Positions 25,085 to 53,964 of a stretch of 64,000 bases of DNA are shown here, in pieces; the first letter of the stretch is position 1, and the number at the start of each line of letters is the position of its first letter. The translations under genes were made by a program, and so were the position numbers. Under the pieces are notes generated by a model. The model had not been told where the DNA came from and did not search any database. It saw only the letters and a list, made by a program, of their open reading frames with translations. This DNA comes from Escherichia coli (GTDB lineage Bacteria > Pseudomonadota > Gammaproteobacteria > Enterobacterales > Enterobacteriaceae), in NCBI RefSeq assembly GCF_024298765.1, contig NZ_CP101210.1; one strand, written 5' to 3'.

Positions 25085-25120
25085 AATAAAAAAGCCCCCG
25101 GAAGGTGATCTTCCGGGGGC
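25085..25120 (-). terminator. his attenuator terminator hairpin
   Basis: gcccccggaag...cttccgggggc stem followed (minus strand) by U-run, between hisL and hisG. Confidence 0.85.
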
Positions 25121-25184
25121 TTTCTCATGCGTTCATGTACCACTGGAAGATCTGAATGTCTTCCAGCACACATCGCCTGAAAGA

Positions 25185-25235
25185 CTAGTCAGGATGATGG
25201 TGATGATGGTGGTGTTTAAATTGAACGCGTGTCAT
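25185..25235 (-). CDS. hisL: his operon leader peptide
   Basis: minus-strand reading atgacacgcgttcaatttaaacaccaccatcatcaccatcatcctgactag = MTRVQFKHHHHHHHPD* (seven consecutive His codons). Confidence 0.95.
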   Translation of the reverse strand: MTRVQFKHHHHHHHPD

Positions 25236-25484: not shown

Positions 25485-25502
25485 TGTACAATGAACTGTA
25501 CA
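25485..25502 (+). promoter_or_regulatory. yefM-yoeB operator: two TGTACA cores
   Basis: tgtacaatgaactgtaca immediately upstream of the yefM RBS (aaagaggag). Confidence 0.7.
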
Positions 25503-25517
25503 AAAGAGGAGATTGAC

Positions 25518-25769
25518 ATGCGTACAATTAGCTACAGCGAAGCGCGTCAGAATTTGTCGGCAACAATGATGAAAGCCGTTGAAGATCATGCCCCGATCCT
25601 TATTACTCGTCAGAATGGAGAGGCTTGTGTTCTGATGTCACTCGAAGAATACAACTCGCTGGAAGAGACGGCTTATCTACTGCGCTCCCCCGCTAACGCC
25701 CGGAGATTGATGGACTCAATCGATAGCCTGAAATCAGGCAAAGGAACAGAAAAGGACATTATTGAGTGA
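25518..25769 (+). CDS. yefM: antitoxin YefM
   Basis: [64 protein letters not shown]... Confidence 0.95.
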
Positions 25770-26020
25770 AACTAATCTGGTCTGAGGAATCATGGGATGA
25801 TTATCTGTACTGGCAGGAAACAGATAAGCGAATTGTTAAAAAGATCAATGAACTTATCAAAGATACCCGCAGAACGCCATTTGAATGTAAGGGGAAGCCA
25901 GAACCCCTGAAACATAATTTGTCAGGTTTCTGGTCCCGACGCATTACAGAGGAGCACCGTCTGGTATACGCGGTTACCGACGATTCACTGCTCATTGCAG
26001 CATGTCGTTATCATTATTGA
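25766..26020 (+). CDS. yoeB: toxin YoeB (ribosome-dependent mRNA interferase)
   Basis: 84 aa; start overlaps yefM stop. Confidence 0.95.
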
Positions 26021-27902: not shown

Positions 27903-28168
27903 AGAAAAATTATTATGACAAGCCTCTCATTCTCTTGTCATTTCCCCCCCATTTAGGCACAATGCGCCGCTGTCAAAAAATGACTAAAAACCGACGTTTC
28001 ATCAGCGTCGGTTATTTTTTGCTTCAAACCAATCATTCATACCAAGAGGCCGGGCTTCGTACCGGATAGATATTTACTAAAAATCGACAGTTGTTGTCGC
28101 TGAGGAATCCAAAAAAATGGGGCAATTTTTTGCTTACGCGACGGTTATCACCGTAAAGGAGAATGACC

Positions 28169-36299: not shown

Positions 36300-36530
36300 T
36301 TAACAACAGCCTTCTTCTGTATGCAGCAAGGCAAAAAGTTCTGTAACTCCATTGTTATTAACTGCACTGGTTACTAACACGTTGTGCGCTCCAGCTTCCC
36401 GTAACCAACTTTTCACCAAAGATATTTGTTCCATGCTGGCTAAATCTGCTTTGGTTACTACTCCAATGACCGGGTGATTCATGGCCCGGTAGGGCGTTTT
36501 TACCTCTAATTCCTGCTTCAGCGCTGAGAT
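36300..36530 (-). pseudogene. YeeP/YfjP-family GTPase, C-terminal fragment truncated by IS66-family remnant
   Basis: translation ...HPVIGVVTKADLASMEQISLVKSWLREAGAHNVLVTSAVNNNGVTELFALLH matches only the C-terminal third of the intact paralog at 46401-47312. Confidence 0.6.
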
Positions 36531-36534
36531 TCCT

Positions 36535-36712
36535 GCTTGTTGCCGGAAAAGCAGGCACCTGCCGTCTGAACGGTATCGATCCGGAAGCGTATCTGCGCCA
36601 TATTCTGAGCATACTGCCGGAATGGCCCTCCAACCGTGTTGACGAACTCCTGCCATGGAACGTAGTTCTCACCAATAAATAAGCGTCAATACGGTGCTCC
36701 GTTGACGCTTAC
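36535..36712 (+). mobile_element. IS66-family element, 3' terminal fragment (TnpC C-terminus plus right IR)
   Basis: plus-strand translation ...AGTCRLNGIDPEAYLRHILSILPEWPSNRVDELLPWNVVLTNK* parallels the C-terminus of the IS66 TnpC at 50853-52388; ends with cgcttac (GTAAGCG IR). Confidence 0.7.
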
Positions 36713-37096
36713 TTTAATCCGTTTTCTGAGCTTAGATTTTTCTGTTCCTACCCAGACCGTGGATTTGGAATTCATTTTTTGTCAGGTCAATGCTAATCGT
36801 TAAAACGGCCATAACGCACCTCCACTGGAAGGTTTATCAGTAATATCCTACCGTTGCTTCATGGTCGGGGCGTCCATTCCATTATTATCGGTTTTCCTTT
36901 CTGTTTATAAATGAAAACGCCAGCTGTATTCAGGCTGGCGTCAGGGGAAATGAAGCCTGTTGAGTGAGATTCACCGGTTCTGGTGCAGAAGCTGCAGATG
37001 GCGCAGGGTAAGGACATCTTCTCTTGCCTGCTTAATACAGGACAACAGTGCTGTTTCTGTGGTTAATGGCACTATACCCTGCATCACTGCATTGTC

Positions 37097-37291
37097 TTAC
37101 AGCAACTGGTGAGGGCTGGCATAAGTTGCCGGTGTTTCGGTAGAGTCACGGTCATCCACCACGCGGAGTGAATAACCGTTTTCAGCGGCCTTATTAATCA
37201 GTTCAGTGATATTAACACCATCAATGTCAACGACAATGTGCCCCATATCCAGCGCCTGTACGTTAACGCTGTCGGCTTCCAGTGTCATCAT
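37097..37291 (-). CDS. yeeW: CP4-44-type prophage protein YeeW-like
   Basis: 64 aa, directly downstream of the cbtA-like gene. Confidence 0.6.
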   Translation of the reverse strand: MMTLEADSVNVQALDMGHIVVDIDGVNITELINKAAENGYSLRVVDDRDSTETPATYASPHQLL

Positions 37292-37661
37292 TTCGCCTCC
37301 GGATACTTACCCAGGGTAATGTTATTTACCGTTCTGTAATTGTCGCGGGTCATCAGGCCGGTCGCCCTGCGAGCCCGGAGGATATCGATGCTGTTTATTA
37401 ACTGAGAGCGGGTACAGGCGCTGAATCCCGGCTGGTCGGTAGCACCAGCGCGTATTTTTCCACGAGAAAGTTCACCGCATCACACAGTGAAATGCCTGCC
37501 TCAATATGCTGCTCAATCACACGTTCATCGGCAAAAGGTGTGTCATTCAGTGTGAGGCCATAGTGCTGGTCCAGCAGTCGGGACAGCAGTATCTGCCAGA
37601 TTTCAACAGGAGACGGGCGAGAACTGGCCGCCTGCCCGGGTAATACAGGTAATGTTTTCAT
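37288..37661 (-). pseudogene. cbtA: CbtA-type toxin (cytoskeleton-binding), apparent 1-bp frameshift
   Basis: N-terminal [73 protein letters not shown] then premature stop; the conserved tail ...[51 protein letters not shown] resumes in another frame; span is 374 nt. Confidence 0.65.
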
Positions 37662-37749
37662 ACTGAAGATTTTCCTGATATGCAGATATAAAAATGGAAA
37701 AGTGGCGTGGTGAAAACACCAGGCCGTAGCAGAAGGCTATTCTGGAGAG

Positions 37750-38118
37750 TTAATTTTTCATTTCGGGCGTCGGATAAACAGCCAGATAAACGTAACCACA
37801 ACTGCTGAGGGTATCGGCTTTGCAGGTCAGCCCTTTTGCATACAGCGTGACGGTATGCTGATGGCGGGGATTCAGTTCACCGCTGGTGAGCATGAGTTCC
37901 AGTTGTTTCATCAGCAGCGGAAAGGCCTGGTCCAGGTGGTACGCATCTGCATCGCTGAACAGGCCTCTGATACCGGCGCGGTCGGCAAGGTAATGCAACC
38001 GGTTACCCTCCTGCACCAGACGTGCCCCGAAACAGGGCGTCACGGTGCAGGGCAGCCCCCACCAGGGGCGGTCGTGATTGTCGTCGGGAAGTGTTGTCCC
38101 GGGGAGTGTGTCTGACAC
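37750..38118 (-). CDS. cbeA: CbeA-type antitoxin
   Basis: 122 aa; MSDTLPGTTLPDDNHDRPWWGLPCTVTPCFGARLVQEGNRLHYLADRAGIRG... Confidence 0.9.
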   Translation of the reverse strand: MSDTLPGTTLPDDNHDRPWWGLPCTVTPCFGARLVQEGNRLHYLADRAGIRGLFSDADAYHLDQAFPLLMKQLELMLTSGELNPRHQHTVTLYAKGLTCKADTLSSCGYVYLAVYPTPEMKN

Positions 38119-38197
38119 GATAAAATCCTTACAGAAAATCGGTTAAGAACGGTCCGGTAATGGCGATAATTCTGCTCATCAGAATGCCCTTACTGAC

Positions 38198-38419
38198 TCA
38201 GTTCAGAGTGACGCTCATCAGCCGGACATACGGGCCAAAACTGTCCTTACGGCGTTCAGCAAACACGGCCAGCACACCGGGAATATCCTGCACTTCACGA
38301 CCGGTATACGTTTCAGTGCTGCCGTGCCAGCGGTATTTGCCGGTACAGAACGGAAAAAGACGGGATGCAGGATGCTGTTGGTGAATACGCATGGCTTCAC
38401 CACGGGTGATGATTTTCAT
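38198..38419 (-). CDS. yeeT: DUF987 family protein YeeT-like
   Basis: 73 aa; conserved position between radC-like and antitoxin genes. Confidence 0.8.
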   Translation of the reverse strand: MKIITRGEAMRIHQQHPASRLFPFCTGKYRWHGSTETYTGREVQDIPGVLAVFAERRKDSFGPYVRLMSVTLN

Positions 38420-38481
38420 AATGGGATACCTCTGAAGACAGAAGATAAAAGTGAAAACAGGTGTGATGTGGTTGTGACGGG

Positions 38482-38958
38482 TTAAAGCAGACCATGTTCG
38501 GCAAAGGAGAAAACCTGGCTGCCACCGACTATCAGATGGTCCGGCACCCGGATATCCACCAGGCCCAGTGCCTGTACCAGACGTTCCGTGATAAGGCGGT
38601 CTGCCTTGCTGGGTGTGACTTCACCGGACGGGTGATTGTGCGCCAGCACCACGGCAGCGGCATTGTGGTACAGGGCGCGTTTAATCACTTCCCGGGGATG
38701 GACTTCCGTGCGGTTGATGGTGCCGGTGAAGAGGGTTTCACCGGCAATCAGCTGATTCTGGTTATTCAGATACAGTACCCGGAATTCTTCACGCTCCAGT
38801 CCCGCCATGTTCAGAATCAGCCATTCCCGTGCCGCACGGGTGGAGGTGAAGGCCACGCCGGGTTCATGAAGATGACGGTCCAGGGTTTTCAGGGCCCGCT
38901 GAATAAGGCTGCGCTCGCCGGGCGTCATCGCTCCGGGCAGAAAGGAAAGCTGTTGCAT
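38482..38958 (-). CDS. yeeS: RadC-like JAB-domain protein
   Basis: 158 aa; HNHPSGEVTPSKADRLITERL JAMM motif. Confidence 0.85.
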   Translation of the reverse strand: MQQLSFLPGAMTPGERSLIQRALKTLDRHLHEPGVAFTSTRAAREWLILNMAGLEREEFRVLYLNNQNQLIAGETLFTGTINRTEVHPREVIKRALYHNAAAVVLAHNHPSGEVTPSKADRLITERLVQALGLVDIRVPDHLIVGGSQVFSFAEHGLL

Positions 38959-38969
38959 GGCCTCTCTCC

Positions 38970-39449
38970 TCAGTCAATGATGCGCATAATGGCGCTGCAT
39001 TCCGGATGCTGCAGGGCGTAATCCCGCAGCCGGTAATAATGGACCGTCATGGCATAACACTCCGTACGACAGGCGTGATGACTGTACGTCATCAGACAGG
39101 CAGCAATGCCGGCGGCTTCCGGGCTCATTTCAGCGCGGTTACCGTTCATGGCACTGAACAGTACCCATGTTTCGTCATCATCGTCATCCGGTTCGGGTGC
39201 CATAAATGCGCCACCGTTGTTCAGGGTGTACAGATTCCAGATACCCCCGCAGTAGTCTTCACACAGACGGTCCATCCAGCCGAAGATACGGGGCTCCAGG
39301 GTCACCCACTGTGGAATGAGGCCAAAATGCTGCGGCCAGAAGCTGATGCGCTGTTCATCAGGGACGAGGCTGGCAACCAGCTGAGGCGGATTATTCTCTG
39401 GTGTTGTAGCTGAATAAATTGTGGGGGTATTCTGAGAAACGGTCTTCAT
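38970..39449 (-). CDS. antirestriction protein (KlcA/ArdB/YfjX-like)
   Basis: 159 aa with acidic stretch EPDDDDDETW; position upstream of radC-like gene as in CP4-type islands. Confidence 0.7.
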   Translation of the reverse strand: MKTVSQNTPTIYSATTPENNPPQLVASLVPDEQRISFWPQHFGLIPQWVTLEPRIFGWMDRLCEDYCGGIWNLYTLNNGGAFMAPEPDDDDDETWVLFSAMNGNRAEMSPEAAGIAACLMTYSHHACRTECYAMTVHYYRLRDYALQHPECSAIMRIID

Positions 39450-39530
39450 GAGATAACTCCTTAAATAACAAATAAATGTGTGTTTTTCAGGAACGAAAGC
39501 TGAATGATTCCCTCACTCAGGGAAACGGCA

Positions 39531-40352
39531 TCAGCGCAGGCTCTCCAGCATCGTTTCTGCCATCACCCACAATGCGCGGTTGAGCTTAATGTCGGTATCA
39601 ATGCTGTGAATGGCCCGGGTATGGATACGTTTTCCTCTGGCACTGCGCCCGGAAATCCCGCCTTTCAGCATATTCTCCTGGATGGTCTGATAAGCACTCC
39701 ACAGGTCCTTACCGTAATCCTCCCGGCGTCGTGGTGTCAGAATGTCGGCGGTGGTGACGGGCTGATGTTCGTCACCATAACGGTAAGTCAGCGCCGCCTG
39801 TGCCAGCGCCTGGCGTGCCGGTGGCGGCAGGACCAGCGACTGCATGGCATCACGCTTCTCCTCTATCCGGTCAAACACGCCCACCACCTCGTAAGCCCCT
39901 TCAATGACTCTGTCCACCACATTTCCCCGGTGCGGAACACGTACTTCCCCCAGAGACTGACCACAGACGCAGCCGTTCTGGCAGACGAACCTGAAGTACC
40001 CCGGCAGCATCTGGTAGCTGGAGGTACCGTCATGAGAGTTGAGCAGAATAATTTCAGGGACATGTTCTCCGTTTATCTCTCCGGCCCGCCGCAGACGCAG
40101 CATGTGTTTTGTGTATCCCCGGCGGCCCGGGTCGCGCACACGGGTCTGGCAGGCGAAGAACGGCTGAAAGCCTTCCCGCTGCAGATTTTCCAGGACGGTA
40201 ATGGTGGGAATGTACGCATACCGTTCACTGCGGGAGGTGTGCCGGTCTTCCCCAAAAATACTGGGTACATGGCGTATCAGTTCTTCATGTGTCAGCGGAC
40301 GGTCACGGCGTATCTGGTTTGCAGCATAACCAAAACGACTTGCTAATCGCAT
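39531..40352 (-). CDS. DUF932-family protein (YfjQ/YafZ-like)
   Basis: 273 aa; conserved member of the CP4-type island backbone. Confidence 0.65.
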   Translation of the reverse strand: MRLASRFGYAANQIRRDRPLTHEELIRHVPSIFGEDRHTSRSERYAYIPTITVLENLQREGFQPFFACQTRVRDPGRRGYTKHMLRLRRAGEINGEHVPEIILLNSHDGTSSYQMLPGYFRFVCQNGCVCGQSLGEVRVPHRGNVVDRVIEGAYEVVGVFDRIEEKRDAMQSLVLPPPARQALAQAALTYRYGDEHQPVTTADILTPRRREDYGKDLWSAYQTIQENMLKGGISGRSARGKRIHTRAIHSIDTDIKLNRALWVMAETMLESLR

Positions 40353-40572
40353 ACTTTGCTCCTTATCGGTGGTTAAGATTTACTGGTGCAATAAATGAAA
40401 AAAGCCGCGTCTCCCGGAGAAGACGCGGCCTGACGGGTGAAATGAATAAGGTTTATTGTCTGAGAGGCCTTTCACTGGCGAGCCACGCATTAAGCGGCTT
40501 TCCGGTAACAATGGCTGGGGCTGTATTTACCTTTGATATTAATAATGTGCAGAGAAACGCATGGTTTACTCC

Positions 40573-40983
40573 TTAGATTTTAAGTTTGTCCTGGGCTACA
40601 ACGACAGGTTTTCCGGATGTGTCGATGACTCCTACCGTCGGTACGCCATTTTTGATTTCGAAGAACGGTTTGTTGCTACCTGAGCACAGTTGATTGTCCC
40701 CGTATTCAATCATTTGTGCTTTCCCGGTTTTCAGGTTAACTACCGAGACAGTGTAGTCGTAGCACCAGGCACCACCACGTTCAAGCACGAAAACATAGCT
40801 GTTATCTTTATAGTTGAACTGATTCTTTGTCTGGCAATTCATACCGTCAATTTCGGTACAGGAAAACGCTTCTGTAGTATTAACGTATTTGATGTTATTT
40901 GGCAGTTTTACTTGTTTCGCAGTAGCGAAGACAGAGAACAGAATAGTTACAGCAACGAGTAAAGTTTTGATAAAAGTTTTCAT
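40573..40983 (-). CDS. small secreted protein, unknown function
   Basis: 136 aa; N-terminal signal peptide MKTFIKTLLVAVTILFSVFATA; 4 Cys in mature part; hairpin plus T-run terminator at about 40401-40440. Confidence 0.6.
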   Translation of the reverse strand: MKTFIKTLLVAVTILFSVFATAKQVKLPNNIKYVNTTEAFSCTEIDGMNCQTKNQFNYKDNSYVFVLERGGAWCYDYTVSVVNLKTGKAQMIEYGDNQLCSGSNKPFFEIKNGVPTVGVIDTSGKPVVVAQDKLKI

Positions 40984-40998
40984 GATAGACTCCTTAAA

Positions 40999-41487
40999 TT
41001 AGTTAACCGCAGCTACGTAGTTTTTCACCAGATACGCGAATTCATGCACGCCAATTTCACCGAACCAAACCAGGTAGGCCGGGTCATCTAAACCAAAGTA
41101 ACGGTAGCCAACAACTTCATGGGTTTTTGGGTTATAGAGTGTTACGATAAAGTCCCAGCCGCAGGTATTGGCTTTGCAACCGTCGCCCTGGAACCAGACT
41201 GTACCGTTAATGTTTACTGGCGTGATACCTCCACCAGGGCCATCCATATAGCCGCCTTTACCGAACATGCCGCTCAGTCCGACCGGTTTTAATGCTTTGT
41301 CGATAGCGGCTTTGTAGGTAGCGTCACCTTCGTACAACTCGTACGTTGATGGACACGCTCCAGGTTGTTCAGCCCAGGCTTCCGGGTTACAACTAAGAGC
41401 TTGTTTTACGGTAGCCGCTTCTGCGTTAAAGTTAAAGCCCGTGAACAGAACCGCCAGAAATAACATAAGGGTATGTAAACGTTTCAT
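40999..41487 (-). CDS. secreted protein, unknown function
   Basis: about 163 aa from internal Met of ORF 40999-41790; signal peptide MKRLHTLMLFLAVLFTGFNFNAEA; Cys-containing motifs GACPST and DGCKANTCGWD. Confidence 0.55.
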   Translation of the reverse strand: MKRLHTLMLFLAVLFTGFNFNAEAATVKQALSCNPEAWAEQPGACPSTYELYEGDATYKAAIDKALKPVGLSGMFGKGGYMDGPGGGITPVNINGTVWFQGDGCKANTCGWDFIVTLYNPKTHEVVGYRYFGLDDPAYLVWFGEIGVHEFAYLVKNYVAAVN

Positions 41488-41817
41488 TGTAAATATTCTT
41501 CCGTTGTAAATGGCGCTGGAAAATTTCTCATCAGTGAAACCTTCCGGAAGTTTCCCCCCCTTGTATGATGTATATCGCCAGTATTTTATTTCATCCCGGC
41601 TGTAATTTTTATATTCCCCGGCACGTGCAATAACGCTGACCAGAGATATAAGGCTCATTAATAACTTTACAGGTAATTTCATAATTAAATTTCCAGTGAG
41701 TGAATTGACAGGTGAGGGGTAAAACTTTCTCTCAGGTAATATATATATGAAAATATTTTCAATAACACCAGACAGGAAAAACACCACCACAGGCGGTGGC
41801 GTTTCTTTGGGGCGTCT

Positions 41818-42888
41818 TTATTTAATCCGGGCCATCGCGTTTCTCAGTGCCAAATCTGCCTCTTCCGTTATATCCAGGCTTTTCTGCAATACCGCCTCTG
41901 ACCGGGTCAGTGCCTGACGTGCTGCCAGCGGTTTCCGGATATGCTCCATCGCCAGCATCGTGTCTTCATAGCCCTGCTGACGCCAGGCGTCGGTATGTGC
42001 CGATGTAAAACTGAGCAGACCGCCGCTGTTGCCACCATCACCTGCATATTTCAGCCTTTTCCGGGGACGGATCTCAAGGATTGTGGTGTCCGGAAAAGCC
42101 TGGCGATCCCATAAAGAACCCTCACTCAGATGCGTCACAATCACCATATTGCATCCGGCATCGACCAGAGGCGTCACAGGGGTATTTCCCTGCATATTTC
42201 GCCATCCTCCCATACCACCATCACCGAACATTGTCCCCTGAACCTCACGGGGACGGAACAGCAGGGGCAGCGCGGCTGACGCAAGCAGAGCCTCTTTCTG
42301 CTGTCCGCGGGGCAGGCTCTGGATATGCTGAAAAACGGCGTTTTTCGTGGTTCCGACACCCAGTTCAGCACGAATGCAGTCAATAATATCCTGCATGCCC
42401 CCTTCTGTGGGGTACAGCGACACATACAGCGGTAGCCCGTCTGCCAGAGCATCAGTATCAAGATAATGATCCATCAGCGCTGTCAGGGGCTCATCTGACA
42501 ACAACGGCTGAGCCATCAGATTGTCAAACCCGTTGATTGTCGATATATGGCGAAGAAGCGTCGTAAGCAGTGCTCCTGCACGTCCGGGGATCTGGCAGAG
42601 GTTCATTGCCTGGAACAATTTTTTCAGCAATGAAAAGTAAACCAATCTGTTTACCGACAGCACCTGATTATTCCCCAGATGATCCCAGAGCGCCTCCAGG
42701 CGTACGGCAGCTTCTGACAGATCGGGAGAGGCCGCGATAATGGCACCATTGAATGCGCCAATGCTGGCCCCTGAAACCATGCTGATCTGTGTACCACACT
42801 CTGCCAGTGCCTTAACCACTCCCGCCTGATAAGCGCCCACCGCCCCGCCACCGGACAGCACCAGCCCCGTTTTCATTTCTGTACTCAT
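41818..42888 (-). CDS. patatin-like phospholipase
   Basis: 356 aa; oxyanion-hole SGGGAVGAYQAG, nucleophile elbow GASIG, catalytic Asp motif FGDGGM; start codon overlaps upstream gene stop. Confidence 0.85.
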   Translation of the reverse strand: MSTEMKTGLVLSGGGAVGAYQAGVVKALAECGTQISMVSGASIGAFNGAIIAASPDLSEAAVRLEALWDHLGNNQVLSVNRLVYFSLLKKLFQAMNLCQIPGRAGALLTTLLRHISTINGFDNLMAQPLLSDEPLTALMDHYLDTDALADGLPLYVSLYPTEGGMQDIIDCIRAELGVGTTKNAVFQHIQSLPRGQQKEALLASAALPLLFRPREVQGTMFGDGGMGGWRNMQGNTPVTPLVDAGCNMVIVTHLSEGSLWDRQAFPDTTILEIRPRKRLKYAGDGGNSGGLLSFTSAHTDAWRQQGYEDTMLAMEHIRKPLAARQALTRSEAVLQKSLDITEEADLALRNAMARIK

Positions 42889-43790
42889 GCAGCCCCCTTC
42901 TGAAATATTTCATCGACCATACTTTCAGAGAGGCGTTCTGCAGAGCAGAGGCGAGGCATGCGAACCGGTAAGTGTTCTGCAGCCTGCGTGGTTGACCAGA
43001 TCACCGGATGCTGCTCTTCACTGCACCAGTCTCCCAGCCAGTTAATCGCGTCATGCCACTCGTTATCTGCCTGCTCCCGGCCCTGACCACCAAGCCAGTC
43101 CAGAGTGTTCAGACGCACGGTTGCACTACCGCCACTCTCCTGTGCCATCTGCGTTAATGCTTTATGTCTGAGAATATCCAGTAGCTGGTTAACCTGGCCT
43201 GTTTCGCTCTGACGTATCACATCACCAAACGCGCCCCAGCGAAGCTCTTCAAGTGCCACATAACAACGTCCGGCAGGGGAAAATGACGCATATCGCCCGG
43301 CGCTCCACCATGAGAATATCTGCTCAAGATGTAACTGCGCCCGCTGAACCTGGTCAACACGGTGGAGTTTTTCTTCAAGATGATTCAGTTTATGGTGAAC
43401 CTGATCGGCCAGGGTGAGTAACTGCTCCCGCGTATCTGCGGAATAATGCGCCAGCCTGGCTGTATCACTGACCAGTGAACTGACCCTGTCGTTTACCCGG
43501 GTAATCGCGTAGTTTGTGGTGGCAAGTGACGTTGTCAGCTCCGTCAGCCAGCGCAGGGATGCCTCAACGCCCTGTGCAAGCGAAGCATTGATGGCATTCT
43601 GCCGTGCAGCACCTTCGCCGCTCAGCCCCTCTTTTAACCGCCGGAAGAACGTGCGCTCTCCGGCCGTGCGGATATGCTCCTGTGCAACATCGATACCGTT
43701 TGCGAAATCAACCACAAATTTTTCAGGAAGACAGGTGAGTACCTGACATACCCGGTTATCAGCAATTTGTTGAATAAATGGTGAAGTCAC
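42885..43790 (-). CDS. coiled-coil protein, possible YjcZ-like partner of dynamin-like GTPase
   Basis: 301 aa, helical/coiled-coil character, no enzymatic motif seen; overlapping stop/start junctions with both flanking genes. Confidence 0.5.
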   Translation of the reverse strand: MTSPFIQQIADNRVCQVLTCLPEKFVVDFANGIDVAQEHIRTAGERTFFRRLKEGLSGEGAARQNAINASLAQGVEASLRWLTELTTSLATTNYAITRVNDRVSSLVSDTARLAHYSADTREQLLTLADQVHHKLNHLEEKLHRVDQVQRAQLHLEQIFSWWSAGRYASFSPAGRCYVALEELRWGAFGDVIRQSETGQVNQLLDILRHKALTQMAQESGGSATVRLNTLDWLGGQGREQADNEWHDAINWLGDWCSEEQHPVIWSTTQAAEHLPVRMPRLCSAERLSESMVDEIFQKGAA

Positions 43791-46183
43791 AGCATTGTCT
43801 CCAGTTCTTCCCTTAACGCCTTACTGTCAGTAATGAGCTCAGGAACTCTTTCATTTAACGCCTGAAGACGCCCGGTCAGCCGTTCCTGCGCCTGCTGATC
43901 GCGTTTATGATCTTCAGAGCTCTGAATCAGCGTGTTACGCAGCTGTTCAACTTTCTCCCTGAATGTACAGAAAAAGGCATCGATTTCCTGGCGGACGGGC
44001 TGGTTAATATCCTGCTCAATGGATGCCTGCAGCTCCCCGAAATATGCCCGGGTCAGTGACATCACCTCCTTCCTGACCTTGTTGATATTGATAACACTGC
44101 GGCTCACATCCACGTTATAGTTTTCCCATCCCCATTCTTTGGTGCCAATCCATCCACAAATCTTTCCAATGAAGCTATCCTTCCGACGGCGACGGGTGAC
44201 TGTCTCCGTTCTTTCCTCCATAAGCGCACTCAGATTTGTTTTTACCGCGAGCCGGGTCTGTAACTGACTGACTGCCGGAAAACTGATTTTTACAGTGAAG
44301 CCCTCATCCGCCAGGCGGGCATTGATACGTCCGGCGATGTTTTCTGTCGCATACAGGGCCGTACCACGAAAACCTGTTTCAATCCCGCTGACGATTTTCT
44401 CCAGCTCAGGCCGGAACTGTGCCTCAGCCTCACTGTGCAGGCTGGTCACGGTCGATTCGATTTGCGTCATCAGTTCAAGGGCTTCCCTGCGATTATTTAA
44501 TGTTATCTCGGGGTTTTCCGGATCAAAGACTCGTATCCTGTCATCCTCCCAGCCCGGGTTATTGATACCGGACCATCGATAAATCTTTCCCCATAATCCG
44601 GACCGGGACCTTCGTTGTTCTGTGTCTTCTTCCTCCAGCATTTGCTGTTCTTTGCGTTTACCGGTTCTGAAATAGTCATTCAGTTCCTCTTCCAGTGAGG
44701 TGCAGACCCCCGTGAGTAATTCCCGGGTTCTGGCATCGATCTCCTCCATGGCCATTCTGACATCAGCGGTCACCTGCTCCTGACAGTCCGCGATTTCCCG
44801 GATATCCGCAAGCAGGCTGGTGATATGCGCCTGCAGTGACTGAATGCTTTGCTGTAGCCCCTGATGGCGTAATGACAGATATTCGCTGACATTTTCCGCA
44901 TTCTGCATCAGTTTTGCGGCGGCAGAATCAACCGCCAGTGCCGCCGCTCTGGAATGGGAACTCTGTATGACTTCCGTTATCAGTTGATCGATAAGTGAGC
45001 CTTCCCACAGGTCTGTTGCCCCTTCAGTTGCCAGTTCGCTGTCTTTACAGACGTAATCTTTTTTCATGCGACCGAAAGCTTCCCTGACAAAATCATCGAC
45101 CCAGGCTTCATCAACAGGAAGGGTTCCGTTTTTCCGTAACTCATGAAGCGCACGGTTAGCCAGGTATGCCTGGCGTGAGGATCCGGGATAAACGCGGGAG
45201 GCGGGCAGCACATCGCTGTTCAGCATTGCCGGAACTTTCTGGCGTACGGCATCTGCCCCATCGCCATTGCGGTCTTTCTCATCAAATTTATTGACCAGCA
45301 CAAACAGGCGGCCAACTGATACGTCCGCAATGGCATTAAGCTCTTTACGGACGTCTTCATCCGCTTTTGAGTTCATCTGGGTGTAATCCATCACTGCCAG
45401 AACCGCAGAAGCTTTCTGCAGTTGATCCCGCATCATCACTTCCATCTGCGGCTGGCCGGCTTCATTAGGGCCGGGGGTATCCAGCAGTGTGAGTGTTCCC
45501 TGGCATGCATCCATCCCCACCAGATGGCTGAATTCCACGTCGATCACCGGCAGTTTCTGCACTTCTGCGTATTCATCAAAAGGAAACTCACTCCCCATTG
45601 CCGCAGCAAGACGAACCAGATCGTTTAACGATGCCAGTCCGGTAAAGATTTCCTCCTCCCCGTGGTATTCATTTTTGAGCCAGCCATCATCCGTCAGAAT
45701 ATCCAGCAGTTCACGGGTATCCCCGGTTTGCAGCAGGGTCTGTGCGACTTGCTGTCCTGCCGGGGTGGCGAGTTTTTCCTGCAGTGTGATTAATAAATTG
45801 CGGACAGGCTGAATATGTTCCAGATGGAGGACCGGCTCAGTTTTTCCGGGAACGTGGCGGATGAGTGTCGGTACAGAGGTCATGGGGCGGTTACGGTTAG
45901 GCAGAATTTCCTGCCCCACAATGGCGTTGATGGTGGTTGATTTGCCTGCTTTCATCGTGCCGACAACAGCCAGCACCATCTCCCTGCGGGCGGTTTTGAT
46001 TTGTTCGCCCTCCAGCTCCTCAATTCTTTTCAGCGCTTTCCGTTTATCAAAAAGCAGCCCGTTTTCGTTCTTACTGTCAGATAACACATCCGGCTCATCA
46101 ACCATTTGCCGGAGCAGATTGATATTCAGTTGCAAAAGCCGGTCGGCTTCATCACAAAGCAGGGCGATGTTCTTTTCGTGCAT
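43787..46183 (-). CDS. bacterial dynamin-like GTPase (CrfC/YjdA/LeoA-like)
   Basis: 798 aa; G1 GTMKAGKST, G3 DTPG, G4 NKFD in N-terminal third; long helical stalk C-terminally; RBS aggaagg upstream. Confidence 0.8.
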   Translation of the reverse strand: MHEKNIALLCDEADRLLQLNINLLRQMVDEPDVLSDSKNENGLLFDKRKALKRIEELEGEQIKTARREMVLAVVGTMKAGKSTTINAIVGQEILPNRNRPMTSVPTLIRHVPGKTEPVLHLEHIQPVRNLLITLQEKLATPAGQQVAQTLLQTGDTRELLDILTDDGWLKNEYHGEEEIFTGLASLNDLVRLAAAMGSEFPFDEYAEVQKLPVIDVEFSHLVGMDACQGTLTLLDTPGPNEAGQPQMEVMMRDQLQKASAVLAVMDYTQMNSKADEDVRKELNAIADVSVGRLFVLVNKFDEKDRNGDGADAVRQKVPAMLNSDVLPASRVYPGSSRQAYLANRALHELRKNGTLPVDEAWVDDFVREAFGRMKKDYVCKDSELATEGATDLWEGSLIDQLITEVIQSSHSRAAALAVDSAAAKLMQNAENVSEYLSLRHQGLQQSIQSLQAHITSLLADIREIADCQEQVTADVRMAMEEIDARTRELLTGVCTSLEEELNDYFRTGKRKEQQMLEEEDTEQRRSRSGLWGKIYRWSGINNPGWEDDRIRVFDPENPEITLNNRREALELMTQIESTVTSLHSEAEAQFRPELEKIVSGIETGFRGTALYATENIAGRINARLADEGFTVKISFPAVSQLQTRLAVKTNLSALMEERTETVTRRRRKDSFIGKICGWIGTKEWGWENYNVDVSRSVININKVRKEVMSLTRAYFGELQASIEQDINQPVRQEIDAFFCTFREKVEQLRNTLIQSSEDHKRDQQAQERLTGRLQALNERVPELITDSKALREELETML

Positions 46184-46244
46184 TATTTAACCTTCCTAAG
46201 ACGCATTTTCATGACAACCACGGAGGAGGTCATTTACTACAAAT

Positions 46245-46279
46245 GATCGTTTATAACGATCGATATGATAGTAACGATC
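46245..46279. promoter_or_regulatory. cluster of three GATC (Dam) sites in 5' region of the dynamin-like operon
   Basis: GATC at 46245, 46258 and 46276; aacgatcgat occurs twice 18 bp apart; 62-96 bp upstream of the GTPase start codon. Confidence 0.5.
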
Positions 46280-46400
46280 GATGTATTCTATTAACTTGAG
46301 AAACACAACGCAAGGGGACAACCCGGGTATGGCTGCGTTTGCATAGTGTTTTCATGGAGTTAAAAATCTGTAACAACAGCCTGGTACATCACCACCGGGT

Positions 46401-47312
46401 TCAGAAGAAAATCCAGTTCCATACCACGCGGGCAACAGAGACCACCGAGTCACGGACGGCGCGCAGAACCGTGCGTGCAACAGAGGCAATGCAGACGCTC
46501 TCCGCCGTGTCAAATATCCGGTCCACCGCACCGGTAAACTGTTCACGGGCCTGAGACCGGACAGACTCCGTGCGCAGCTCGTCCTGCAGGCGGGTCATCA
46601 GGGGACTGGCGGCATGGTCGGGAAGTGCTGTCATGAGCGCACTGACCAGCGTATCCAGTTCCCAGCCGGTGCGGGCCGATACGGCAACAACCCGATGTAC
46701 GGGCCGGAACAGACGGAATACCGCCTCCGTTTTTTCGCGAATGTTCTGTGCCTGTGCGGGAGAAGGCTGAATACCGGCCATATCCCATTCATGGCAGGGC
46801 TCCGTTTTATCGGCCTGCATCACCACAAACAGTACCCGCTGATGTCCCCGGTGCAGGATGTGTCGCCAGAAATACTCATCCACAGACAGGGCACGGTCAT
46901 CGGCTTTAATCAGCCACAGTACCAGGTCCAGTTCGAGCAGAATGTCACGGTACAGGGCTTCATACTCTGCATCCCTGTCCCGGCTCTCGCCCACCCCGGG
47001 CAGGTCAGTGATAACCATGCTGTGACCATGGCCATTCAGACGGAAGCGCTGCACTTCCCGGGGGCCGGCGTGAACATCACTGACCGGGGTGACCTCCCCC
47101 TGAAACAGCGCATTACAGAGTGAGGATTTACCGGCCCCGCTTTTACCCATAATGCCAGGCACGGGTTCGTGACTGGTGAGTTTGCGCAGATGTTCCAGGA
47201 TGTGACGGGAAAGTGAGTAAGGCAGGGAGGAGAGCGGTTTTTCAATTGCCTCAATGGCATCAGACGGATTCATACATGTATTCCCGGTGAAAAAAGACAA
47301 AACCCCGCGCAC
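46401..47312 (-). CDS. YeeP/YfjP/YkfA-family GTPase, apparently intact
   Basis: P-loop GIMGKSGAGKSSL, DLPG, VMQADK motifs; possible start at internal MNPSDAIE (47273). Confidence 0.8.
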   Translation of the reverse strand: MRGVLSFFTGNTCMNPSDAIEAIEKPLSSLPYSLSRHILEHLRKLTSHEPVPGIMGKSGAGKSSLCNALFQGEVTPVSDVHAGPREVQRFRLNGHGHSMVITDLPGVGESRDRDAEYEALYRDILLELDLVLWLIKADDRALSVDEYFWRHILHRGHQRVLFVVMQADKTEPCHEWDMAGIQPSPAQAQNIREKTEAVFRLFRPVHRVVAVSARTGWELDTLVSALMTALPDHAASPLMTRLQDELRTESVRSQAREQFTGAVDRIFDTAESVCIASVARTVLRAVRDSVVSVARVVWNWIFF

Positions 47313-47356: not shown

Positions 47357-48520
47357 TTATCTGGAATCGATTTGGCTGTTCTGCCTGGTTGCCACCAAAT
47401 CATGGTACGCCTGCTCAATCATTTCATTCAGCAGTTTTTTTGGGAGGACACCACGACTTCGGGCAATACTTTCAAGCTGTTTGTGGATTTTTCCGGACAG
47501 TTTCAGAGGGACGGAACCATCAGCACGTTCATCACGCCTTTTTTGTTGCTCCCGGGCACTTTTCAGCTCATCAAGAAGAATCGCTTTATGCTGAATCCTG
47601 GGGGCCTGGAAGGAGACCTGCGTAAACTTCGCTCTGTTCCGTCTGGGATTACTTTCCAGTAAAAACTGTACCTGTTGCTCATTCCAGCCCTCCCAGTTAT
47701 CAAACGTGGCGCAGGCAAACCAGTATTTCTGCTCCGGGGTAAGGGGATTCAGCGGGGTTCCCACACACCGGACCTGCATGGCGTTCCATAACCAGTCACA
47801 CTGTTCACTGTCCCTGCTGTCCACCCACGAAAAGGGGGAGGGGTAATCATTGTTTATGCTGGCCCATTCAGAGAATACTGAGTTGATAATCGTCCTCGTA
47901 GCCTCTGGTCCGGATTTCAGCAGGTAACTGGAGCAGAACCATATAATTTCACGGTAGATTTTATCCGGATGCACGGTGCGCATCGGCTTTTCTCTGGGAC
48001 CGGCAATCTTCGGTTGCGATGGAAACCCCGTGGCAAACCGCAGATGTTCCGGGGGCATTCCTGAACGTTTTTCAGGAATGGGTGTGAGTCCTGCGTTTCT
48101 GGTCTTTTCCGCTTGTCCGGTATTGCCTCCGGCCGGAGTGTTGTCGGGAGTATCTTCCGGAGGCGAGGTGTTTTCATTAGTTGGGGGAACAACAGCAGAA
48201 CTGTCCATCTCCGGAATGGGTTGAGGGGCATAATCACTGTGGTAGCCAGGGGAAAGCGTTAAGTCCCGAAGGATGACATCAGGTTCCGGGCAGTGAGTGC
48301 CACCGGGAGTGAACGGGAGTTGTTGCTTTTGGGAGAAAAATGTATTGTGAATGCGGGTATACAGCTGGAACAGAAAAAAATAAGATGCCCGTGGTTCTTT
48401 TTTTAACCACTGTGTATATTCCTCTATGGCACCGAGCTGTTGTTTGTGCCGTTTTACAGCATCGATATACGGACAGCTGGTGCAGATATCATCCAGTTCC
48501 TTTCCCACAATACACCTCAC
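47357..48520 (-). CDS. hypothetical island protein with low-complexity Pro/Thr-rich linker
   Basis: 387-aa ORF; central PPTNENTSPPEDTPDNTPAGGNTGQ region; C-terminal helical segment; no recognised catalytic motif. Confidence 0.45.
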   Translation of the reverse strand: MRCIVGKELDDICTSCPYIDAVKRHKQQLGAIEEYTQWLKKEPRASYFFLFQLYTRIHNTFFSQKQQLPFTPGGTHCPEPDVILRDLTLSPGYHSDYAPQPIPEMDSSAVVPPTNENTSPPEDTPDNTPAGGNTGQAEKTRNAGLTPIPEKRSGMPPEHLRFATGFPSQPKIAGPREKPMRTVHPDKIYREIIWFCSSYLLKSGPEATRTIINSVFSEWASINNDYPSPFSWVDSRDSEQCDWLWNAMQVRCVGTPLNPLTPEQKYWFACATFDNWEGWNEQQVQFLLESNPRRNRAKFTQVSFQAPRIQHKAILLDELKSAREQQKRRDERADGSVPLKLSGKIHKQLESIARSRGVLPKKLLNEMIEQAYHDLVATRQNSQIDSR

Positions 48521-50852: not shown

Positions 50853-52388
50853 ATGAACGACACCTCTTCTGACGACATCCTTCTGCTGAAACAGCGCCTG
50901 GCCGAACAGGAAGCGTTGATCCACGCCCTGCAGGAAAAGCTGAGCAACCGGGAACGCGAAATAGACCATCTGCAGGCGCAACTGGATAAGCTGCGCCGGA
51001 TGAACTTCGGCAGTCGTTCCGAAAAGGTATCCCGCCGTATCGCGCAAATGGAAGCTGACCTGAACCTGCTGCAGCAGGAAAGCGATACGCTGACCGGCCG
51101 GGTGGATGACCCGGCAGTGCAGCGCCCGCTGCGTCAGACCCGCACCCGCAAACCGTTCCCTGAGTCACTCCCACGGGATGAGAAGCGGCTGCTGCCGACT
51201 GAGCCGTGTTGCCCGGAGTGCGGTGGTTCGCTGAGTTACCTGGGTGAGGATGCCGCCGAACAGCTGGAGCTGATGCGCAGCGCCTTCCGGGTTATCCGGA
51301 CAGTCCGTGAAAAGCATGCCTGCCGTCGGTGCGATCGCATCGTTCAGGCCCCGGCTCCTTCGCGCCCCATCGAACGGGGGATCGCCGGACCGGGGCTGCT
51401 GGCCCGAGTGCTGACCTCAAAGTATGCAGAGCACACACCGCTGTATCGCCAGTCGGAGATCTATGCCCGCCAGGGTGTAGTGTTGAGTCGTTCTGTACTG
51501 TCGGGCTGGGTGGATGCGTGTTGTCGTCTGCTGGCACCGCTGGATGAAGCCCTTCAGCACTATGTCCTGACCGACGGCAAACTCCATGCTGACGATACGC
51601 CTGTCCCGGTGCTGTTGCCAGGCAATAAGAAGACGAAGACCGGGCGCTTATGGACGTACGTTCGAGACGACCGCAACGCCGGATCAGCGCTGGCCCCCGC
51701 AGTGTGGTTCGCTTACAGCCCGGACAGAAAAGGTATCCACCCTCAGACCCATCTTGCAGGCTTCAGTGGCGTACTGCAGGCTGATGCCTACGCCGGGTTC
51801 AACGAGCTCTACCGCGACGGCCATATAAAGGAAGCCGCGTGCTGGGCCCATGCCCGCCGAAAAATCCACGATGTTCACGTCCGTACCCCGTCAGCCCTGA
51901 CGGAGGAGGCGCTGAAACGGATCGGCGAGCTGTATGCCATCGAGTCGGAGCTCAGAGGTAAAAGAGCAGAGGAACGGCAGGCAGTCCGGCACCAAAAAGT
52001 GCTGCCGCTGCTGGCGTCACTGGAGGGGTGGCTGCGGGAGAAACAGAAAACCCTCTCAAGGCACTCAGAACTGGCGAAGGCGTTCGGGTATGCGCTGAAC
52101 CAGTGGCCGGCGCTGACCCGCTATGCAGAAGATGGCTGGGTGGAGGTGGATAATAACATTGCCGAAAACGCCCTACGACTGGTCAGTCTGGGGAGAAAAA
52201 ACTGGCTGTTCTTCGGCTCGGATCATGGTGGTGAGCGCGGTGCGTCACTGTACAGTCTTATCGGGACGTGCAAATTAAACGGCGTGGATCCGGAACGCTA
52301 TCTGCATCATGTACTTGATGTCATCGCCGACTGGCCTGTGAACCGGGTGGGTGCTCTGCTCCCGTGGCGGGTTACTCTGCCCGCCTGA
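50853..52388 (+). CDS. IS66 family transposase (orf3/TnpC)
   Basis: 511 aa; N-terminal leucine zipper, CPECGG...CRRCD zinc motif, DDE region. Confidence 0.9.
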   Translation: MNDTSSDDILLLKQRLAEQEALIHALQEKLSNREREIDHLQAQLDKLRRMNFGSRSEKVSRRIAQMEADLNLLQQESDTLTGRVDDPAVQRPLRQTRTRKPFPESLPRDEKRLLPTEPCCPECGGSLSYLGEDAAEQLELMRSAFRVIRTVREKHACRRCDRIVQAPAPSRPIERGIAGPGLLARVLTSKYAEHTPLYRQSEIYARQGVVLSRSVLSGWVDACCRLLAPLDEALQHYVLTDGKLHADDTPVPVLLPGNKKTKTGRLWTYVRDDRNAGSALAPAVWFAYSPDRKGIHPQTHLAGFSGVLQADAYAGFNELYRDGHIKEAACWAHARRKIHDVHVRTPSALTEEALKRIGELYAIESELRGKRAEERQAVRHQKVLPLLASLEGWLREKQKTLSRHSELAKAFGYALNQWPALTRYAEDGWVEVDNNIAENALRLVSLGRKNWLFFGSDHGGERGASLYSLIGTCKLNGVDPERYLHHVLDVIADWPVNRVGALLPWRVTLPA

Positions 52389-53346: not shown

Positions 53347-53964
53347 TCAACTGTGAGCGGCATCAACCGATGTACGGTATGCCATAAGCACGTACTGATC
53401 CATCAGATTTGTCAGTGGTTCACTCTGACCCTGACGTGCAATGATCCATTGCTCCAGATCTTTTTCTGATTTGTGTTTCAGGTTTTTCGTCCAGTCGTCA
53501 AGGCTGTTTCCGGTCATTAAGTCAAGCCAGCAGAGCCAGACCAGTTTGAGACGTAACTCCGTGCCGCCAAACTGACGGAAGAGGCTGATCAGTTTGTTTG
53601 CCAGAGAATGTTGCTTCAGGCGCTCACATTCAGACAGCAGGATCCCTTCCAGCATCGGATGATGAACCAGCAGGTGTTCGCTGGTGCATAAATTCACCAC
53701 CAGATCATCATCCAGGGACGGGGAGCTCCGTTTGTCCGGACCATAAATCAGCCGGTGCAGACTCTGGGGAACGATGGCAATCTCCGGTTTTTCGCCATTG
53801 AATGACACCCACCCGGGCGTCAGATTATGGAAATAGTAGATATTCGGATGACACACGCCCCATGATACGGCGTGCCGGGTGAAGCCGGTCAGCCATTTCT
53901 GGTAGTTTTCATGGAGCAGCTCGTAACGGGTCTGATACTGTTGTTTCATTTTCATATTCCTCAC
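53347..53964 (-). CDS. hypothetical prophage-island protein
   Basis: 205-aa ORF co-oriented with and downstream of alpA; no motif recognised. Confidence 0.4.
   Translation of the reverse strand: MRNMKMKQQYQTRYELLHENYQKWLTGFTRHAVSWGVCHPNIYYFHNLTPGWVSFNGEKPEIAIVPQSLHRLIYGPDKRSSPSLDDDLVVNLCTSEHLLVHHPMLEGILLSECERLKQHSLANKLISLFRQFGGTELRLKLVWLCWLDLMTGNSLDDWTKNLKHKSEKDLEQWIIARQGQSEPLTNLMDQYVLMAYRTSVDAAHS

Follow-up and report, generated by a model that had tools for sequence, protein, structure and literature searches.

A single-base deletion makes a pseudogene of the type IV toxin gene cbtA beside an intact cbeA in a CP4-44-like island of Escherichia coli

The stretch of Escherichia coli DNA analysed here, 64,000 nt in full length and referred to below as the window, very probably carries a CbtA/CbeA type IV module of a CP4-44-like island in which the toxin gene has become a pseudogene through the loss of one G from codon 74, with the antitoxin gene cbeA as its leftover. 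The K-12 toxin CbtA is an inhibitor of FtsZ and MreB, and its toxicity is relieved by CbeA (PMC5624674, PMC5371832). The locus in the window has the family homology, the gene order and the synteny of such a module, and it departs from one only in lacking an intact toxin reading frame. Because a 1-nt deletion leads to a stop after 87 codons, this cbtA is a pseudogene member of the CbtA/CbeA module rather than a functional one, and, judged from its sequence, the module probably no longer makes active toxin. The features of the locus, with positions counted along the window, are the following.

37661..37288, minus strand: cbtA (yeeV) pseudogene, 374 nt against 375 in K-12
37398..37661, minus strand: leftover frame-0 open reading frame of cbtA, 87 aa (ORF list and Pfam)
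37441..37442, minus strand: deletion site in cbtA, where the G of codon 74 (CGT in K-12) is absent (alignment column 678)
37288..37440, minus strand: C-terminal remnant of cbtA, residues 75-124 plus TGA, in the -1 frame, untranslated
37662..37749, minus strand: cbeA-cbtA spacer, 88 nt, 100% identical to K-12 (alignment columns 370-457)
38118..37750, minus strand: cbeA (yeeU), intact type IV antitoxin gene, 122 aa, GTG start (ORF and Pfam)
37097..37291, minus strand: yeeW, 64 aa, identical to K-12 (PF25638 DUF5983_N, E 2e-29)

The cbeA-cbtA-yeeW block of the window was aligned to K-12 MG1655, and over 1023 columns the two differ at only two places, the G lost from cbtA codon 74 and one SNP in cbeA. 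The initial annotation had described a toxin frame that breaks after about 73 conserved residues, a conserved C-terminus that runs on in another frame and a span of 374 nt that fits a single-base deletion, and it had proposed alignment to an intact cbtA as the check. The K-12 allele bears out this description and makes it exact. Frame 0 encodes precisely 73 residues identical to K-12 CbtA, followed by 14 out-of-frame residues and a TAA stop at 37400..37398, and residues 75-124 are encoded in the -1 frame at 100% identity to K-12, ending in a TGA at 37290..37288. The one missing base lies inside the interval suggested for inspection, 37430-37460. The same break appears in a tblastn search with K-12 CbtA, in which matches in two frames (E 3.9e-66) stop at 37443 and restart at 37440. 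Against the 112 positions of the PF06755 CbtA_toxin profile, the 87-aa open reading frame aligns over positions 1-73 (E 1.3e-37), and the gene with the G put back aligns over all of them, 1-112 (E 3.1e-58). Where an uninterrupted frame of about 124-125 codons was looked for, a stop was found after 87. The cbtA lesion is an unambiguous single-base deletion rather than a chance pattern.

Translation from the normal cbtA start would yield 73 native residues, 14 unrelated ones and a stop, so that the last 51 residues of CbtA would be lost, including a conserved block made up of R74-T75-D76 and S91-L103. A separately translated C-terminal fragment was considered and rejected: the first start codon in the -1 frame gives only about 21 aa, and no open reading frame of at least 30 aa is listed there. 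At window positions 37431-37449, a 6-bp inverted repeat (GCTGGT / ACCAGC, coding strand) holds the missing G in its loop; this may be coincidence, or the repeat may have promoted the deletion.

The arrangement of the two frames also invites another explanation, in which a -1 ribosomal frameshift or transcriptional slippage near GAA-AAA-T supplies near-full-length toxin at a low, regulated level. The -1 frame is open from about codon 60, and a slip made before the frame-0 stop rejoins the C-terminal sequence; moreover, five consecutive A stand 13 nt upstream of the deletion, with the 6-bp inverted repeat after them. However, reading through the frame overlap reveals no X XXY YYZ slippery heptamer, only GAA-AAA-T, and an A-run of this length is short for slippage. 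The minimum free energy of the folded 91-nt region, -24.2 kcal/mol, hardly differs from the average of shuffled sequences, -23.9 (z -0.11), and the region contains only the 6-bp hairpin. The two-frame arrangement is not conserved, since 24 of 24 full-length homologues are single-frame, and one lineage carrying the deletion has gained a second frameshift. Because the A-run and the hairpin are both present in the intact allele as well, they are not adaptations to the deletion. Heptamer, stimulatory RNA structure and conserved two-frame layout, the three marks of programmed -1 frameshifting, are all missing here. Recoding is very improbable, and the pseudogene reading is retained.

The deletion allele, called delta-G below, is common among sequenced strains. 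An exact 80-mer across the deletion is found at 100% identity and full length in 1486 of the 5426 complete E. coli genomes (~27%), and the matching intact 81-mer, by the same measure, in 1776 complete E. coli genomes. The 80-mer occurs, among others, in O157:H7, O104:H4, E. coli C and SMS-3-5, strains of phylogroups E, B1, A and F, respectively. The whole 831-nt cbeA-cbtA stretch is 100% identical in at least 40 complete genomes among the matches listed, O104:H4, O145, E. coli C and WG5 being some of them, and the closest relative over window positions 30000-54000, at 99.7% identity, has the same cbtA pseudogene. PGAP labels cbtA as 'frameshifted' in all 14 delta-G RefSeq genomes inspected. 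Additionally, the exact 87-aa product is recorded on at least 1000 contigs, and NCBI and UniRef call it CbtA or YeeV toxin.

These figures bear directly on the alternative, left standing by the initial annotation, that the frameshift is an assembly or sequencing error and that the strain truly has an intact 124-codon cbtA, that is, GTGCGTACC at the site. Single-base indels are the commonest type of assembly error, the initial annotation had singled out this site, and nothing else favours this explanation. The identical deletion, on the other hand, occurs in 1486 complete genomes that many laboratories produced independently on many platforms, its context (GTGC/TACC, the slash marking the deletion) lies outside any homopolymer, the closest relatives of the window all share it, and the delta-G haplotype has derived SNP sub-lineages of its own as well as a secondary frameshift. 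The 1486 genomes with the same 80-mer, the 14 PGAP labels and the derived sub-lineages together exclude an error for practical purposes, leaving it a negligible chance. Since derived SNPs of its own and a second frameshift are possible only for an allele that is real and inherited, delta-G is such an allele, and because the deletion is a widespread inherited one, resequencing is not expected to bring back a frame of 124 codons. The delta-G allele is old, inherited and widely circulating in E. coli, and no sequencing artefact. It is also an already known, widespread pseudogene allele in the sense that public annotation records it in over a thousand genomes; a literature search for papers on the cbtA delta-G allele found none.

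The direction of the change was read from a family alignment of 24 full-length CbtA homologues, those with a named source coming from Escherichia, Klebsiella, Citrobacter, Enterobacter, Serratia and Raoultella, in which a total of 47 invariant columns were counted. Because all 24 homologues are in a single frame, the intact cbtA is ancestral and delta-G is derived; R74-T75-D76 is invariant throughout. Residues 74-124, which are no longer translated, hold 20 of the 47 invariant columns.

Further change has accumulated in what remains of the gene. Eleven delta-G alleles were sampled, each differing from the window at one site or more, and the SNPs that they offer are few. The substitutions found in their cbtA are A12T, L38Q, R47C and A62V, all of them nonsynonymous, and L38 and A62 are invariant columns of the family alignment. 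In this small sample, cbtA has 0 synonymous and 4 nonsynonymous changes, and cbeA has 2 synonymous and 2 nonsynonymous. Variants of the 87-aa protein comprise D40N (418 contigs), V19I, L38M and R15H, with D40 and V19 again being invariant columns. Strain T16R (NZ_CP046716.1, 601-976) carries delta-G together with a second 1-nt deletion in a CCCGGGC run at codons 8-9, and its cbtA further shows A12T and A62V, together with a recombinant 3' end that encodes another C-terminal tail; the strain represents one more stage of decay on the same delta-G allele. The sampled changes, few in number, point to relaxed constraint on cbtA. Because nonsynonymous changes have arisen at otherwise invariant positions, and a second frameshift in at least one strain, delta-G cbtA is regarded as decaying and the truncated gene as drifting. 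The suggestion of the initial annotation that toxin loss with antitoxin retention is a form of toxin-antitoxin decay suits this locus well, where a broken and further drifting cbtA stands beside a whole cbeA.

It may be asked whether the 87-aa product keeps any function. In CbtA, the substitution R15C abolishes MreB binding and F65S abolishes FtsZ binding (PMC5624674), and R15 and F65 both lie within the 73 retained residues. No solved structure of any CbtA relative was found, the best PDB match having an E value of 0.12. An AlphaFold model of CbtA built on the 24-sequence alignment has a mean pLDDT of 61. Its only moderately confident part consists of the helices at residues 18-34, 46-54 and 59-69 (pLDDT 73-87), all of which are retained, and residues 75-124 are mostly below a pLDDT of 50. 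Because the confidence of the model is low, misfolding of truncated CbtA cannot be argued from structure.

On these grounds it could be proposed that the 87-aa product is functional, attenuated or re-purposed as a weak toxin, decoy or regulator, and that the allele has become common through selection. The contact residues for MreB (R15) and FtsZ (F65) are retained (PMC5624674), the confidence of the AlphaFold model is best for residues 12-72, and the allele reaches a frequency of about 27% across several phylogroups. In the 2011 work by Tan and colleagues, C-terminal truncations of YeeV, when overexpressed, reportedly still gave cell elongation. Yet derived nonsynonymous changes have arisen at invariant columns (L38Q, D40N, A62V, V19I) and at R15 itself (R15H), the frameshift of one lineage at codons 8-9 destroys the open reading frame, 20 of the 47 invariant family positions are gone, and a neutral or mildly beneficial toxin loss predicts a high frequency equally well. 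A functional product is consequently improbable. The narrower proposal, that the product is made and works either as a toxin of reduced strength or as a decoy competing with paralogous CbtA-family toxins, and that the frequency of about 27% reflects selection rather than drift, is distinctly improbable as well. The preferred interpretation of the toxin gene thus remains that of a pseudogene.

The antitoxin gene, by comparison, is whole. As the initial annotation had it, cbeA is intact: its 122-aa open reading frame spans nearly the full PF06154 CbeA_antitoxin profile (positions 1-100 of 101, E 4.3e-53). Codon 108 (window 37796) encodes G108 here against D108 in K-12; G108 CbeA is the widespread form, and the D108 form of K-12, used in published experiments, is a minority variant. 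The CbeA of the window is RefSeq WP_001285585.1, which adjoins both intact and frameshifted cbtA and accompanies the intact gene in strains STB20-1 and A1_136. Because the same protein also sits beside intact cbtA, the CbeA allele has no special link to toxin loss, and the idea of a cbeA variant specially tied to that loss was rejected. The gene is presumably still expressed, now as an antitoxin without its toxin.

Two accounts of its persistence were compared. K-12 CbeA neutralises YkfI and YpjF besides CbtA (PMC5371832), and a role against related toxins that newly arrive, described as anti-addiction, has been proposed for orphan antitoxins (PMC7354431). We infer that cbeA persists simply as a harmless leftover, possibly helped by its neutralisation of the paralogues YkfI and YpjF. 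Alternatively, and compatibly with the pseudogene reading of cbtA, cbeA may be kept by selection as an orphan antitoxin against CbtA-family toxins encoded elsewhere or arriving on related islands. This account is consistent with the published cross-neutralisation of YkfI and YpjF (PMC5371832), with the reviewed anti-addiction concept (PMC7354431) and with the several such loci that most E. coli genomes carry, the median being 3 places per genome. The substitutions tallied above, 2 synonymous to 2 nonsynonymous in cbeA against 0 to 4 in cbtA, lean the same way, in counts far below what a selection test would need. By megablast, delta-G genomes have from 1 to 5 related places each; against selection, several delta-G genomes, among them E. 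coli C, WG5, S1 and WAT, show only this locus at megablast sensitivity and so have no paralogous toxin for CbeA to counter, and a second copy of the module is absent from the window. Because several delta-G genomes are single-locus and the window has no second copy, inertia is sufficient to account for the persistence of cbeA. Selected retention is a possible but doubtful addition to it, and cbeA is best seen as a leftover of the module.

The surroundings of the module place it in the island. Upstream of it lies a block spanning 38198..40352, followed by further cargo, as listed below.

38198-38419, minus strand: yeeT (DUF987; Pfam)
38482-38958, minus strand: yeeS (RadC/JAB; Pfam)
38970-39449, minus strand: antirestriction protein (Pfam)
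39531-40352, minus strand: DUF932 protein (Pfam)
41818-42888, minus strand: patatin-like phospholipase
42885-43790, minus strand: YjcZ/RdcB-like protein
43787-46183, minus strand: dynamin-family GTPase, 798 aa
46401-47312, minus strand: small GTPase

The gene of the PF06154 family stands directly upstream of cbtA, on the same strand and 88 nt away, and the order yeeS-yeeT-cbeA-cbtA-yeeW beside tmaR-yeeA-sbmC is that of a CP4-44-type island, by comparison with the K-12 annotation and with the closest relative. The order of the upstream block (yeeT, yeeS, antirestriction, DUF932) is likewise the same as in K-12 CP4-44 and in other genomes. A promoter and terminator scan of 36600-40700 gave promoter counts no better than shuffled sequence and nothing informative for an operon.

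Downstream, the start of yeeW overlaps the original cbtA stop (ATGA). With the deletion, the termination of cbtA is uncoupled from the start of yeeW, to which the distance from the new stop is 107 nt; yeeW retains its own GGAGG four bases upstream of the ATG. The match of the yeeW product to DUF5983 is confined to the N-terminal domain. The entire distal end of the island is degraded, beyond cbtA alone.

Several other observations were made along the way. In related genomes, the region downstream of yeeW (window 36300-37096) is annotated with fragments of DUF957 and of a transposase and with a short remnant of the EutP/PduV family, and in the window a 118-aa open reading frame at 36300-36656 matches only the last third of PF10662. 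PADLOC returned only weak matches, to LeoBC at E values of about 1e-5, in the island cargo at 41818-47312, and gave no matches for CbeA and CbtA, so a defence-system role for the pair was dropped. Pfam gave no match for the open reading frames at 40573-40983, 40999-41790, 47357-48520 and 53347-53964. An IS66-family tnpC at 50853-52388 (plus strand) is an uninterrupted 511-aa open reading frame, which PGAP calls 'frameshifted' in the closest relative, NZ_AP027813.1. A yefM-yoeB type II toxin-antitoxin pair at 25491-26020 (plus strand), with overlapping genes of 92 and 84 aa beside the his operon, is apparently intact, in contrast to the decayed type IV cbtA/cbeA module 11 kb away. Window positions 1-24000 contain an O-antigen cluster of the O128 family (with a wzx of that family), genes for GDP-mannose, gnd and the his operon. 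Coverage of at least 80% of this part is reached in only 22 of 5426 genomes, the best being 99.0% identical. To judge from these genes, the source strain is an O128-type E. coli. The only Rfam matches at the gathering threshold in the window are the His operon leader at 25086-25209 (minus strand, 131.7 bits) and the STnc240 sRNA at 27948-28022 (plus strand, 68.2 bits).

For annotation, the frameshift in the cbtA of the window is genuine, and the gene should be entered as a pseudogene and not "corrected". About 27% of complete E. coli genomes, O157:H7 and O104:H4 included, would be without a functional CP4-44 CbtA, and results obtained with CbtA/CbeA of K-12 on stress tolerance, biofilm and cell shape should not be assumed to hold for delta-G strains. 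The allele matters when the presence or absence of cbtA is scored in pangenome or toxin-antitoxin surveys, and it offers a clean natural example of the toxin-first decay of a type IV module. The finding is real but ordinary, with little import beyond correct annotation.

Among known systems, the nearest is the CbtA/CbeA pair of the K-12 MG1655 CP4-44 island (b2005/b2004), which occupies the same locus as an orthologous allele. Both islands share yeeS-yeeT upstream and yeeW, the yoeD/yoeF remnants, tmaR, yeeA and sbmC downstream. They differ in that CbtA has 87 aa here, not 124, and CbeA has G108, not D108, and in the upstream cargo, which comprises DUF932, antirestriction, patatin-like, YjcZ-like and dynamin-family proteins in the window and flu and yeeR in K-12 CP4-44. 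The genes annotated by PGAP as 'cbtA, frameshifted' in E. coli C, O104:H4, O157:H7 and SMS-3-5 have the same deletion and show no substantive difference from the one described here, although some genomes with this label have additional SNPs (A12T, L38Q, R47C) or are frameshifted a second time. The modules YkfI/YafW (CP4-6) and YpjF/YfjZ (CP4-57) share with cbeA-cbtA both Pfam families and the placing of the antitoxin gene before the toxin gene, and the antitoxins of the CbtA, YkfI and YpjF modules are interchangeable in neutralisation assays (PMC5371832); however, they are separate loci with diverged sequences, and neither is in the window. Finally, orphan-antitoxin loci surveyed in Klebsiella, Mycobacterium and Acinetobacter (PMC7354431) resemble the present one in that the toxin is inactivated and the antitoxin open reading frame is kept. 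Those surveys cover mostly type II systems, in which the antitoxin binds the toxin, whereas CbeA is a type IV antitoxin, reported to act on the targets FtsZ and MreB.
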